Shown here: positions 33,447 to 36,739 of the stretch, one piece after another
Position numbering within the stretch: the first letter of the stretch is position 1
Layout of the letters: each line of letters starts with the position of its first letter
From: an uncultured Clostridium sp.
Lineage (GTDB): Bacteria > Bacillota > Clostridia > Christensenellales > CAG-138
Assembly: GCA_964600045.1 (NCBI GenBank)
Contig: CAZRHS010000001.1
Location: 77,877 to 135,026 of the forward strand
Reading direction: 5' to 3'
DNA: 57,150 bases
The notes under the pieces: model-generated
Told to the model about the DNA's origin: nothing
Database searches by the model: none
What the model saw: the letters and a program-made list of their open reading frames with translations, nothing else
Translations under genes and position numbers: made by a program

Positions 33447-34634
33447 ATGATTCACCCCATTAAGAAAATAACCGAAAAGGAATCAAGGCTTGTAATAGGC
33501 ATTATGTCCGGCACGTCGGCGGACGGCATAGACGCGGCGCTTTGCCGCATACACGGCCACGCCACCGATACGCGGGTTGAGCAGCTTGCCTTCACTTTTG
33601 TGCCGTATGAGGAAAGCGTGCGCAGCGAGGTGCTTCGCCTTGCGGGCGGCGGCACGGCAACGGCGGCGGATTTTTGCAAAATGAACTTTTTGCTGGGCAG
33701 GCTTTACGCGTCCGCCGCGCTTAAGCTTTGCCGTGACTGCGGCATTGCCAAAGAGGATATAGATCTTGTCGGCTGCCACGGGCAAACGCTTTGGCATATT
33801 CCAAATGACGAGGAGTATCTTGGCCAAAGCTTCAAAAGCACATATCAGCTGGGCGAGTTTTCGGTTATAGCGGAGGCGTTCGGCTGCCCCGTGGTTGGCG
33901 ATTTCAGGGTTAGGGACGTGGCCGCGGGCGGACTTGGCGCGCCGCTTGTGCCATACAGCGAATTTTTGATATACCGAAGCAAAACCGATTGTGTTGCGCT
34001 GCAGAATATAGGCGGCATAGGCAACATAACCTGCCTTGGGGCGAACTGCTCCATGGATGAGGTTTTCGCCTTTGATACAGGCCCGGGCAACATGGTTATT
34101 GATGCCGTGTACTCAATTATCACAAACGGTGAAAAGCACTATGACGAGGGCGGAAAGTTTGCCGCCAAGGGCAACATAAATAAAGACCTTCTGGCCTTTA
34201 TGATGAACGATGAATATGTTTTAAGAAAGCCGCCCAAAACAACCGGGCGTGAGTATTACGGGGCGGAGTACGTAAAGAAAATAATGAGCTTTGCCCAAGC
34301 TCACTCCGTATCGCCTGAAGACATTATGGCAACCGTAACCGACTTTACGGCGGAAACGATAGCGTATTCGATAAATAACTTTTTCCCCGTTAAGCCCGCA
34401 AGGCTTATCGTGGGCGGCGGAGGAAGCCTGAACGATACTCTTATGGCGGATATAAGGCGGCTTCTTCCCGATTGCTTTGTGGCTACCAATGAGCAGATAG
34501 GCTTTGACAGCAGCGCAAAGGAGGCCGTGGCGTTCGCGGTGCTCGCAAACGAAACCGTGTTCGCCGGAAACAACAACGTGCCTTCCGTAACAGGGGCGGC
34601 GCATGGCGTATCAATGGGCAAAATAAGCCTTTGA
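33447..34634 (+). CDS. anmK: anhydro-N-acetylmuramic acid kinase
   Basis: IGIMSGTSADGIDAAL N-terminus and NIGGIGN block. Confidence 0.9.
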   Translation: MIHPIKKITEKESRLVIGIMSGTSADGIDAALCRIHGHATDTRVEQLAFTFVPYEESVRSEVLRLAGGGTATAADFCKMNFLLGRLYASAALKLCRDCGIAKEDIDLVGCHGQTLWHIPNDEEYLGQSFKSTYQLGEFSVIAEAFGCPVVGDFRVRDVAAGGLGAPLVPYSEFLIYRSKTDCVALQNIGGIGNITCLGANCSMDEVFAFDTGPGNMVIDAVYSIITNGEKHYDEGGKFAAKGNINKDLLAFMMNDEYVLRKPPKTTGREYYGAEYVKKIMSFAQAHSVSPEDIMATVTDFTAETIAYSINNFFPVKPARLIVGGGGSLNDTLMADIRRLLPDCFVATNEQIGFDSSAKEAVAFAVLANETVFAGNNNVPSVTGAAHGVSMGKISL

Positions 34635-34646
34635 TTAACAAAATGA

Positions 34647-34671
34647 AAGCGGGAGCAAATCACTCCCGCTT
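34647..34671. terminator. bidirectional stem-loop between convergent anmK and the SIR2-like gene
   Basis: AAGCGGGAG-CAAATCA-CTCCCGCTT forms a perfect 9-bp stem. Confidence 0.7.
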
Positions 34672-34680
34672 AAATTATAT

Positions 34681-35631
34681 TTATTCCCATTTAAGCCATT
34701 CGCTTCCGCCGTGGTATTGCTCCGAAGGCTCGCCGGATTGCATGCGCTGGTTTATTTCCTCATAAAGCCAATCGTAATAACCCTTGAAGTTTCCGTGGAA
34801 GCCGCCGTCCTCAACCTCCATGCCGTAGGCATCGGCAAGCAGCTTTTCCTCCGGCTTTATATCGAATTTATAAAGCGTTATCTTCTTTTCGGGGAAGTGG
34901 CGCTTTTTGCAGTTAACAAGCCACCACAGGTCAAGCTCGGAAAGCGACATGCCAAGCGCCGCTATATGAACCTCGCCAAGCATAAAGTAATCAAGCCAGC
35001 TCCTTACTTCTATGCCGTTCTGCCTTGCGTAGCGCGTGTTGCAGCGGGCAAGAAGCGATGCCATATACTGCTGCATTTTGGCAAGCAGCTTGCCGTAATA
35101 ATAGTGGGCAAATATCATGGATTTGAATTTTGCCGCCTCGCCGTGTATGTGCCAGATTGTGGGGTAATCGCCAACGGCGAAAAACGTGTGCAGCTGCTCG
35201 TTTGCGTATGTGCTGCCGCTGTCGTAAACCAGGCGGCGGGCTTTACACCTGCGCCCGGGAAGACACCTGAACTTTGGGTCAAGCGCCTTTTCAAGCTCGT
35301 ATGTATAGTTGGCCGTAAGTATCGCGTTTACCGGAAGCGAGGCAAACTGCCTAAGCTGGCGCTCCTCCTCCTCGTCCGCGCGGCGCTCGCTGAGCGGCCC
35401 GGATATTTTTTTAAGCTGTTCGCCGCAGTGGTTGCCCGTAAGTATAACGGGCTGCAGCGGGTACGGCACGTGCTTAACGCTTGCCCTTTCAGGACCCGTA
35501 AGATTCTTTGTGCGAACGGATTCTATAAGCTCTTCCCAAGATGTAAAGCCGTAGGCGCGGTTTATGCCGTTTCCAAGCACCAGCACCTTTGGCGTTGATC
35601 CGTATTCTATCCTCGGCAGGATTTCTTCCAT
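34681..35631 (-). CDS. SIR2-like / AbiH-like protein (stand-alone, 316 aa)
   Basis: GGAGG lies 7 nt before ATG 35631. Ordered motifs: VLVLGNGINRAYG, AILTANYTYELE, IWHIHGE and ALGMSLSELD. This reads as the SIR2_2/AbiH-type pattern recalled from memory, not searched. Confidence 0.6.
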   Translation of the reverse strand: MEEILPRIEYGSTPKVLVLGNGINRAYGFTSWEELIESVRTKNLTGPERASVKHVPYPLQPVILTGNHCGEQLKKISGPLSERRADEEEERQLRQFASLPVNAILTANYTYELEKALDPKFRCLPGRRCKARRLVYDSGSTYANEQLHTFFAVGDYPTIWHIHGEAAKFKSMIFAHYYYGKLLAKMQQYMASLLARCNTRYARQNGIEVRSWLDYFMLGEVHIAALGMSLSELDLWWLVNCKKRHFPEKKITLYKFDIKPEEKLLADAYGMEVEDGGFHGNFKGYYDWLYEEINQRMQSGEPSEQYHGGSEWLKWE

Positions 35632-35672
35632 GGCATTTCCTCCGAAAAAAGATTATAGAAAAGCGGCTTTTG

Positions 35673-36143
35673 TTAAAGCGTTATAATGCTTACCCTTGCC
35701 GTGCCGTTTTCAAGCTCCGCTTTTGCAAAGCTTTTCTTTCTGCCGCCGCGCGGCACGCTGGGACTGCCGGGGCACACAAGCTGCACCCCTAACGCGTACT
35801 CAATTTCAGAAACATGGGTGTGCCCATAAAGAGCAAGGGGGCATTCAAGCTCCTGCGCCCTAAGGCTCAGGCGGTAGCGGTCAAGCGACACGGCGTATGT
35901 ATGCCCGTGCGCCATGAATATGCGCACCCCGCCAAGCGTTATAACCTGCTCCGTATCAATGCTTCCCGCGTCGCAGTTGCCCTTAACGCTGTATACAGGT
36001 TTACCGCTTTTAGCCGCCATCCATTCGGCCTCGCGCCTGCCGTCGCCCAAAAAAGCCCAGGCATCCGCGTCGGGCAGCGCCTCATAAACGCGCCTTGCGG
36101 CATCCGTATCGCCGTGAGTATCGCTGAATATGCCAAGTATCAT
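35673..36143 (-). CDS. YfcE/YsnB-family metallophosphoesterase
   Basis: Motifs DTHGD, GDG, GNCD and HGH. Downstream of rdgB, as in Bacillus ysnA-ysnB. Confidence 0.88.
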   Translation of the reverse strand: MILGIFSDTHGDTDAARRVYEALPDADAWAFLGDGRREAEWMAAKSGKPVYSVKGNCDAGSIDTEQVITLGGVRIFMAHGHTYAVSLDRYRLSLRAQELECPLALYGHTHVSEIEYALGVQLVCPGSPSVPRGGRKKSFAKAELENGTARVSIITL

Positions 36144-36739
36144 GCTTTGCTTTCCGCCTCAAGCGCGGCCTTAAGCGCCTCAAGCGCGCGCTTGCGGTGG
36201 CTTATCGCGTTTTTGCTCTCCGCACTCATCTCCGCAAAAGAAAGCCCTTCCGGCTCATAGAAAAACAGCGGATCGTAGCCAAAGCCGTTTTCGCCCTGCG
36301 GGGCGTAGAGCAGCCTTCCCTCAACCGCGCCGCGGCATACAATCGGCTCCTTATCCCTGCGGGCAAGGGCCACCGCGCTTACAAAGCGGCAGGCGCGCTC
36401 ATTTTCAGGCACGTCCTTCATCATGTCCATAAGCTTAGCGTTATTTTCCTCGTCATTATGGCCTTCCCCGGCAAAACGCGCGCTGTATACGCCGGGCGCG
36501 CCGTTCAGGGCATCCACCATAAGGCCGCTGTCGTCGCTAAGCGCGGCATCGGCATCGGCTATGTTAAGCACCTCCGTCGCCTTTTTAAGCGCGTTCTGCT
36601 CAAATGTTTCGCCGTCCTCAACCACGTCTATGGTAATGCCCGCTTCCTTAAGGGAAAGTATTTCGTCAAAATAATCCCCGAGAATTTCCTTTATCTCGCG
36701 CACCTTATGCGCATTGTTGGATGCTATTATAAGCTTCAT
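36140..36739 (-). CDS. rdgB: XTP/dITP diphosphatase (Ham1/RdgB family)
   Basis: MKLIIASNNAHKVREI, DDSGL and GFGYDP. Confidence 0.93.
   Translation of the reverse strand: MKLIIASNNAHKVREIKEILGDYFDEILSLKEAGITIDVVEDGETFEQNALKKATEVLNIADADAALSDDSGLMVDALNGAPGVYSARFAGEGHNDEENNAKLMDMMKDVPENERACRFVSAVALARRDKEPIVCRGAVEGRLLYAPQGENGFGYDPLFFYEPEGLSFAEMSAESKNAISHRKRALEALKAALEAESKA

Follow-up and report, generated by a model that had tools for sequence, protein, structure and literature searches.

A stand-alone SIR2-like gene of an uncultured Clostridium and the LRR_5- and MoxR-associated gene cassettes of its relatives

NADases of the SIR2 type are a recurring effector of bacterial immunity. In those that have been characterised, triggering is, to our knowledge, always supplied by a domain fused to the NADase or by an already known partner (SLOG, STAND, HerA, pAgo, KomB or the sensor region of DSR). 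AbiH, an abortive-infection (Abi) system consisting of one SIR2-like gene, is carried on the chromosome and is linked to mobile elements (PMC13064643), and an immune SIR2 subfamily, SIRim, has been described that includes DSR1/2, Avs5, SIR2-HerA, pAgo-associated SIR2 proteins and human FAM118A/B (bioRxiv 10.1101/2024.09.18.613514). Ternary conflict systems centred on MoxR and vWA proteins are concentrated in multicellular Actinobacteria and in Cyanobacteria (Kaur, Burroughs, Iyer and Aravind, eLife 2020; PMC7159879), and neither SIR2 nor DUF2201 is mentioned in that survey. The gene considered here, designated SIR2L, encodes a SIR2-like protein of 316 amino acids (aa) and lies on the minus strand of a 57150-nt stretch of DNA, referred to as the window, from an uncultured Clostridium sp. 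(GenBank accession number GCA_964600045.1; contig CAZRHS010000001.1, coordinates 77877 to 135026). SIR2 immune effectors are already known, and what is new is a family that is never fused to other domains and has partners outside the catalogued defence systems. This family is set apart by being large and compact, with about 350 clusters at E ≤ 1e-30, and by its partners, which are leucine-rich repeat proteins of the LRR_5 family and MoxR/VWA/DUF4132 proteins, none of them in PADLOC. SIR2L itself is probably a functional SIR2-type, NAD+-consuming conflict effector that has been separated from the cassette in which its closest relatives are found.

An earlier note, made from this DNA and its open reading frames (ORFs) alone, had pointed out four motifs in the predicted protein, namely VLVLGNGINRAYG at residues 16–28, AILTANYTYELE at 103–114, TIWHIHGE at 158–165 and AALGMSLSELD at 224–234. 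All four were found at exactly these residues, and they are conserved beyond chance in an alignment of 37 family sequences that share 44–64% identity with SIR2L of the window. The alignment contains 22 invariant positions, including G20, N21, G22, T106, N108, Y111, E114, W160, H161, G164, D234, W236 and W237. The coding sequence and the features within it are as follows.

34681–35631, minus strand: SIR2L coding sequence, 316 aa with an ATG start, stop codon included, taken from the ORF list and the sequence
35566–35574, minus strand: codons for G20-N21-G22, the N-terminal dinucleotide-binding loop, in which GNG replaces the usual GAG; invariant in 37 of 37 sequences and paired with the 'GAGLS' loop of ThsA
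35308–35310, minus strand: codon for Asn108, the predicted catalytic Asn of the TxNY motif; invariant and paired with Asn112 of ThsA (6lhx)
35143–35145, minus strand: codon for His163, the predicted catalytic His of WHIHGE; present in 36 of 37 members and paired with His152 of ThsA
34930–34932, minus strand: codon for Asp234 of the G-x-S-x-x-x-D motif, which is followed by a family-specific WW; D234, W236 and W237 are invariant
34684–34740, minus strand: C-terminal tail of 19 residues (298–316), predicted to be disordered; not found in the cassette-borne relatives (about 297 aa) and retained in the related locus L011

A structural model of SIR2L was built with AlphaFold2 on the family alignment (pLDDT 87, pTM 0.87), and consists of one domain spanning nearly all of the 316 residues, with pLDDT below 50 at residues 303–316. 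When the model was compared with the PDB using Foldseek, all 40 matches at E ≤ 0.05 were SIR2-family structures. The best 31 were SIR2 domains of defence proteins (E 1.6e-6 to 5.6e-3; TMq 0.41–0.58), in the order Avs5 (1.6e-6), ThsA (3e-6), then KomC, DSR2, SIR2-HerA and SPARSA, and the matches to deacetylase sirtuins and human FAM118B were weaker (E about 1e-2). The family profile was also searched against PDB sequences, and ThsA was retrieved (6lhx at 1e-4 and 8wc0 at 3.6e-4), with KomC weaker at 0.05. In the alignment of the profile with 6lhx, N108 pairs with N112, H163 with H152 and G20-x-G22 with GAG. Asn112 and His152 are the catalytic residues of ThsA. A defence-type SIR2 fold with the catalytic Asn/His pair in register is thus well supported by the modelled structure and the profile.

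Searches of family databases gave weaker results. SIR2L scored 24.4 bits against Pfam AbiH (PF14253; E = 3.7e-5), for which the gathering threshold is 30.9, with residues 98–243 matching positions 139–247 of 260, the C-terminal 40% of the profile. The score against Pfam SIR2_2 (PF13289) was 19.6 bits (E = 1e-3), again without reaching the gathering threshold of 24.5. At E ≤ 0.01, however, SIR2_2 matches were obtained for 37 of 37 relatives (best 2.4e-8) and AbiH matches for 29 of 37 (best 7.3e-9). No significant match to SIR2L was found in PHROGs, and PADLOC returned a weak match to ThsA (2.7e-4). The earlier note had recognised a SIR2_2/AbiH pattern, and this holds for the fold, on the evidence of the model, the Foldseek comparison it had recommended and the family profile, but not for membership of either Pfam family. 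Its placing of Asn108 and His163 at the catalytic sites is borne out by the alignment with ThsA, and its description of a protein of effector size without a sensor agrees with the single modelled domain. As ThsA, DSR2, KomC, Avs5 and SIR2-HerA consume NAD+, SIR2L most likely cleaves or otherwise consumes NAD+ via Asn108 and His163, by analogy with these proteins.

At least 408 relatives of SIR2L of about 297 aa were found, most of them unnamed and metagenomic, and a protein identical to SIR2L is present in public metagenomes (P0001). The hosts are gut and rumen Firmicutes, mostly Clostridia. An exhaustive HMMER search over 1.84 billion representatives, with clusters formed at 50% identity, identified 1766 clusters at E ≤ 1e-3, of which 349 reach E ≤ 1e-30. 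The best 150 of the 1766 clusters were represented by proteins of about 300 aa or shorter fragments, and the longest was no more than 358 aa, indicating that these proteins carry no fused domain. As no sensor is fused to the SIR2 module in this family, regulation must come from other polypeptides or from self-assembly.

The genetic context of the relatives was examined at 80 loci (79 non-redundant) from GTDB species genomes, nearly all of them metagenome-assembled genomes (MAGs) of gut or rumen Clostridia, supplemented with the contigs of selected metagenomic homologues, and the neighbouring proteins were clustered. In 35 of the 79 loci (44%), the SIR2-like gene has as its direct neighbour a co-oriented gene for a BspA-type LRR_5 protein, and the median gap between the two is about 24 nt. 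LRR_5 genes account for 31% of genes at position −1 and 24% at position +1, and for ≤2% beyond five genes.

Around six of the seven closest relatives examined (P0002, P0008, P0013, P0017, P0024 and P0032; 57–64% identity), the SIR2-like gene was found in a cassette with the order DUF2201 (a zincin-like peptidase with a VWA domain), an optional LRR_5 gene, the SIR2-like gene, a MoxR-like AAA+ gene (~505 aa) and an LRR_5/DUF4132 gene (770–1065 aa). The start of the MoxR gene overlaps the stop of the SIR2-like gene by 4 bp in these cassettes, which are located as follows.

L001: 5001–13372
L148: 4441–11721
L004: 3997–13609
L151: 5565–9399
L091: 726–4919
L092: 3614–10411

The AAA+ protein of the cassette gave a weak match to bpMoxR. 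When the cassette and other neighbouring proteins were searched with PADLOC, weak IetA-like matches were obtained for the AAA+ protein and none for DUF2201, LRR_5, DUF4132, SPFH or Macro proteins. No paper was found that pairs DUF4132 with MoxR, or DUF2201 with SIR2, and three of the four papers found that mention DUF4132 concern unrelated subjects, as far as titles and abstracts indicate. The cassette of DUF2201, SIR2-like, MoxR and LRR_5/DUF4132 genes is a candidate for an undescribed multi-gene conflict system of gut and rumen Clostridia.

The seventh close relative, P0012 (299 aa, 61% identical), is a solo copy, flanked on either side by a tyrosine-recombinase gene of the phage-integrase family. 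The same layout was found in two independent samples (L094 237–3768 and L095 151–3682), with HTH_17 and DUF927 primase-like genes close by. Judged by these gene assignments, this copy sits on an integrative mobile element.

Other arrangements were seen elsewhere in the family. A second module, found at seven loci (L088 2782–5055; also L018, L039, L072, L080, L036 and L047), combines the SIR2-like gene with genes for an LRR_5 protein, for a membrane protein of ~230 aa that matches nothing in Pfam, and for an SPFH/Band_7_1 protein carrying double zinc ribbons at its C terminus. P0094 (48% identical) is overlapped downstream by a 152-aa ORF with no match in Pfam or PADLOC and has a divergent PIN7-domain gene upstream (L006 8918–9376 and 6980–7873), and this may be a different two-gene arrangement. 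A Macro-domain gene lies directly downstream of the SIR2-like gene in three or four distant members (L052 987–1976, L065 10896–11966 and L067 1618–2004), which hints at ADP-ribose-linked chemistry, either a product or a reversal step, in part of the family. Finally, members of a distal clade (~30% identity) have an upstream gene for a ComEA-like HhH protein (HHH_3) at L048, L054, L058, L060, L061, L074, L081 and L084, where PilT-like ATPase genes are near and some of the HhH neighbours also match Pfam T2SSK. The presence of the ComEA-like neighbour probably reflects gene order preserved on the chromosome, without a functional connection to the SIR2-like gene.

The history of the window copy was examined by comparison with related loci. 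Over 20.9 kb, L011 (CAVIJJ01), from a related genome, keeps the gene order of the window at 94.3% nucleotide identity, with an intact SIR2L in the same position. The two copies of SIR2L differ by 30.5 synonymous and 16.5 non-synonymous changes, giving a ratio of non-synonymous to synonymous rates (dN/dS) of 0.136, and all 22 invariant residues are kept in the window copy. SIR2L of the window is under purifying selection, moderately relaxed. In the same comparison, SIR2L and five other genes are free of gaps, and eamA, ysnB, rdgB and rqcH have two to four gap positions each, which may be MAG assembly errors or real local indels.

In two more remote lineages, L144 and L146, where YsnB is 76% and 68% identical to that of the window, the order parE-parC-(ssb)-rqcH-(Germane)-rdgB-ysnB is kept and other genes follow ysnB, with SIR2L absent downstream of the conserved parE-ysnB block. 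SIR2L is therefore an accessory gene and not part of the core. For the anmK side, AnmK was used to scan metagenomes and 48 loci were recovered, most at ~65% identity, and none was syntenic with the window, with no fmdA, ysnB or SIR2L nearby. The survey of presence and absence at this locus that had been suggested is thus informative on the ysnB side, where SIR2L is present in L011 and missing from L144 and L146, but not on the anmK side. The style of the gene had been regarded as that of the host, and the GC content of SIR2L (0.52–0.54) is indeed the same as that of its neighbours, but its absence from two lineages that keep the block speaks against core-gene status.

In a neighbour-joining tree (constructed without support values), the cassette-borne copies of L001 and L004 form the sister group of the window and L011 copies, and the next outgroup, L013–L015, is also cassette- or LRR-associated. 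The tail and the downstream DNA were searched in three frames for the remnant of a deleted MoxR gene, and this possibility was rejected as nothing resembling the MoxR N-terminus MNIKQAKEQI was found. The most economical history is that a gene of a clade that carries cassettes was either gained or kept, by itself, at the variable end of the conserved block, with purifying selection on it predating the divergence of the window genome and L011. The earlier view of SIR2L as a minimal module does not survive as a statement of origin, as the family is normally coupled in operons to LRR_5, and in the window's own clade to the cassette, and the window copy is a solo derivative of a multi-gene system. 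In the same way, SIR2L is an orphan to the extent that no HerA, TIR, pAgo, STAND or SLOG gene was found among the annotated genes of the window, but many of its relatives stand beside LRR_5 genes or in the cassette.

In the mechanism proposed for the family, the SIR2 module, always a separate polypeptide, would have its regulation supplied by neighbouring genes, LRR_5 being the family-wide partner. In the cassette, the variable LRR proteins would sense the invader and the MoxR/VWA pair would then remodel or release the complex. The freed SIR2 protein, perhaps oligomeric like ThsA, KomC and Avs5, would deplete NAD+ and abort the infection. The sensor role of the LRR proteins and the switch role of MoxR/VWA are assigned by analogy with the MoxR-vWA logic described in PMC7159879. 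In the window lineage, the effector gene is found alone at the variable end of the parE-parC-rqcH-rdgB-ysnB block, probably transcribed by read-through. As SIR2L is alone and yet under purifying selection, it is most likely either a solo effector or an effector with partners elsewhere in the genome. By analogy, the solo SIR2L may act alone, like the single-gene AbiH system (PMC13064643), or with unlinked partners, and its role would be in defence; P0012 on its mobile element is a precedent for lone copies.

Several observations weigh against SIR2L being such an effector. As neither Pfam gathering threshold is reached, SIR2L by that criterion belongs to a sister family and is not a member of AbiH or SIR2_2, and no significant match to it was found in NCBIfam. 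Known defence genes are scarce around the relatives. Among the 93 proteins scanned with PADLOC, which were the operonic neighbours outside the LRR_5 cluster, each matched family (Avs4, dGTPase, mad3/8, ZorD-like, LmuB and WYL) was represented by a single neighbour. No relative was detected when IMG/VR viral contigs were scanned with the family pattern, and tblastn searches of plasmid and phage collections gave remote matches only (22–25% identity). The distal clade lies beside ComEA-like HhH and Macro genes and not LRR genes, which allows a non-defence, ADP-ribose-related role. The dN/dS of SIR2L is two- to sevenfold that of its neighbours (0.02–0.08 for hflX, fmdA, anmK, parC and parE). The window copy also deviates at five of 64 near-invariant positions (D67N, T171S, G175A, V224A and G225A), compared with none or one of the 64 in the cassette-borne close relatives, and the raised dN/dS and the five deviations together fit some relaxation after the loss of partners. 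Carriage of the family by phages or plasmids was rejected on the IMG/VR, plasmid and phage results. Of the checks that had been proposed for the defence reading, PADLOC returned the weak ThsA match for SIR2L and does not catalogue the cassette, and the neighbourhoods of homologues held a few defence genes, though with each PADLOC family limited to one neighbour of the 93.

A more specific form of the conflict-effector reading is that the family supplies the effector of a hitherto undescribed clostridial immune system, with rapidly varying cytoplasmic LRR_5 proteins of the BspA type as the invader sensors and a MoxR/DUF2201/DUF4132 switch that licenses NAD+ depletion. This is put forward tentatively. 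Within it, and with the same reserve, the window copy may be a naturally occurring derivative reduced to the effector, for which a control of its own has evolved.

Alternatively, SIR2L may not be autonomous, and may instead act as effector within an LRR_5/MoxR/VWA system, the remaining genes of which were moved elsewhere in the genome by rearrangement and work in trans. The tight coupling of the family to LRR_5, and of the nearest clade to MoxR and DUF2201, favours such an arrangement, and the retention of all invariant residues under purifying selection would be expected if an interaction partner persists. However, phmmer searches with the cassette partner proteins gave no match among the window ORFs of at least 70 aa, and no partner homologue was found in the L011 locus. 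The 4-bp overlap with the MoxR gene argues for stoichiometric co-expression, which would be lost if the genes were split, and five near-invariant positions have been altered in the window lineage. The solo P0012 copy also shows that lone copies spread independently. Action in trans is considered rather unlikely.

That SIR2L is a functionless remnant, left after loss or partial transfer of the cassette and on its way to becoming a pseudogene, is more doubtful still. The dN/dS above that of the neighbours (0.136 compared with 0.02–0.08), the five deviations where close relatives have none or one, the extra disordered tail of 19 residues and the absence of the gene from related lineages would all be consistent with decay. 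However, the ORF is intact in two genomes that are ~5% apart, its dN/dS is far below 1, and none of the 22 invariant residues, among them the catalytic Asn and His, has been lost. Both the tail and the five deviations occur in the window as well as in L011, and are therefore older than the split and have been maintained since. The 41 nt upstream of the gene, Shine-Dalgarno sequence included, are identical in the two genomes.

The sequences flanking SIR2L include the following features.

35638–35643, minus strand: Shine-Dalgarno sequence GGAGGA, 6 nt before the SIR2L ATG, read from the sequence
35652–35657, minus strand: TATAAT hexamer inside the 41-nt gap between ysnB and SIR2L, unsupported as a promoter (sequence and promoter scan)
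34647–34671, both strands: bidirectional intrinsic-terminator hairpin, AAGCGGGAG/loop/CTCCCGCTT, identified by a terminator scan of both strands, with the stem kept in L011
35673–36739, minus strand: ysnB (Metallophos_2) and rdgB (Ham1p_like), upstream of and co-directional with SIR2L, assigned by Pfam; part of the context and a likely source of read-through

The hairpin is the shared end of SIR2L and the convergent anmK gene. A promoter scan of the 41-nt gap detected no acceptable −35/−10 pair, and the TATAAT hexamer has no TG extension, so that a promoter of its own for SIR2L was rejected as unsupported. No terminator was found between ysnB and SIR2L in the terminator scan. As there is neither a usable −35 element nor a terminator in the gap, transcription of SIR2L by read-through from rdgB-ysnB is no less likely than initiation at a promoter of its own, and read-through is probably how it is transcribed.

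Pfam annotation covered the ten genes around SIR2L and ten further large ORFs of the window. The flanking genes encode HflX, EamA, FmdA, AnmK, YsnB (Metallophos_2, of the YsnB/YfcE type), RdgB, RqcH (NFACT), ParC, ParE and DUF4364, and the further large genes are likewise housekeeping genes (Mfd, PBP, ABC exporters, MurJ-like, MazG, ComEC and QueA). No LRR_5, MoxR or VWA gene was found among the annotated genes. Several descriptive points of the earlier note were confirmed, namely a 316-aa ORF with an ATG start and its own Shine-Dalgarno sequence, its position as the last gene of the minus-strand parE-parC-rqcH-rdgB-ysnB run, and the 9-bp bidirectional terminator, which was detected on both strands. 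The TATAAT hexamer that it had reported is present in the gap but, with no −35 partner, is unsupported as a promoter for SIR2L.

GC skew and AT skew change sign near 34600, at the convergent boundary between anmK and SIR2L. A replication terminus at this point was considered and rejected, as the same flip is seen at every change of gene strand across the window and the pattern thus follows the direction of transcription.

The position of rdgB raises a last alternative, in which the function of SIR2L is a housekeeping or stress-related one connected with nucleotide sanitation by the rdgB-ysnB operon, either through a Kongming-like pairing with RdgB, which would sense dITP and control its SIR2 partner, or as a regulatory ADP-ribosyltransferase acting on proteins, or a deacylase. 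The Ham1p_like gene (36140–36739, minus strand) lies two genes upstream on the same strand with no terminator between, the KomBC pair consists of a HAM1-like protein and a 264-aa SIR2 protein (PMC13454610), KomC is among the best structural matches to SIR2L, and three or four distant family members precede a Macro-domain gene. Nevertheless, this is very improbable and a Kongming-like HAM1-SIR2 pairing was rejected, as RdgB of the window is canonical (1e-44 to Escherichia coli RdgB compared with 2e-8 to KomB), the rdgB-ysnB pair occurs without SIR2L in related lineages, no family locus outside the window lineage (L008/L011) has HAM1 in flanks of up to 10 kb, no KomA-like deaminase is near SIR2L among the annotated window genes, and the nearest relatives come from MoxR/LRR cassettes. 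The proximity of rdgB to SIR2L is thus most likely a coincidence.

The most interesting lead, the cassette of LRR_5, MoxR, VWA and SIR2-like genes found with the relatives, lies outside the window. Should this cassette prove to serve in defence, gut anaerobes would have an additional route to NAD+ depletion, one that starts from an LRR sensor, and a bacterial pathway from LRR receptor to SIR2 effector would, if true, parallel eukaryotic LRR innate immunity. The solo SIR2L in a region of the core genome would then be a natural experiment on the control of an effector without its partners. If the solo copy is controlled autonomously, it would provide a minimal model for the silencing of a bare SIR2 NADase. 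If SIR2L is inactive or a leftover, the finding shrinks to an ordinary accessory gene.

Among the known systems, the SIR2 domain of ThsA (6lhx, 8btp and 8wc0) is, of all solved structures, the one that the family profile matches best (1e-4), and it ranks second in the structural comparison (3e-6; TM-score 0.55), and the GxG loop, the Asn of TxNY and the His of hHG align. However, the two proteins share only ~13% identity, the loop of SIR2L is GNG and not GAG, and W160, H161, W236 and W237 are invariant residues of the SIR2L family's own. SIR2L also lacks the SLOG or Macro domain expected of Thoeris, and no ThsB/TIR gene is nearby. DSR1 and DSR2 are proteins of ~1000 aa with a C-terminal sensor region, whereas SIR2L has 316 aa and its family is unfused. 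SIR2L likewise has no adjacent HerA or pAgo gene, as in SIR2-HerA and SIR2-pAgo (SPARSA), and no fused STAND NTPase, as in Avs5. Nearly all of the structural matches to SIR2L, including FAM118B, fall in SIRim, and the protein differs from that subfamily in that no sensor domain of the STAND, pAgo or DSR type is fused to it.

KomC of Kongming resembles SIR2L in being a small, single-domain SIR2 protein for which a separate regulator is needed, as is probably the case for SIR2L, and it gave the highest target-normalised TM-scores (0.61–0.67). However, neither KomA nor KomB is encoded beside SIR2L, the Ham1 gene nearby being a canonical rdgB. AbiH of Lactococcus lactis (PF14253) is, like SIR2L, a stand-alone SIR2-like protein of ~300–350 aa without a fused sensor domain, but the operon linkage to LRR_5, MoxR and VWA genes seen in most of the SIR2L family has not been reported for AbiH. 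In the cassettes of the relatives, a MoxR-like AAA+ protein and a VWA protein go together with a separate effector and variable repeat proteins, the same design as in the MoxR-vWA ternary systems. What sets the cassettes apart is a DUF2201-type VWA protein that includes a zincin-like peptidase domain, together with LRR_5/DUF4132 proteins as the third components in place of VMAP, iSTAND or FtsH. No such partners accompany SIR2L in the window, whereas they are present around six of its seven closest relatives.

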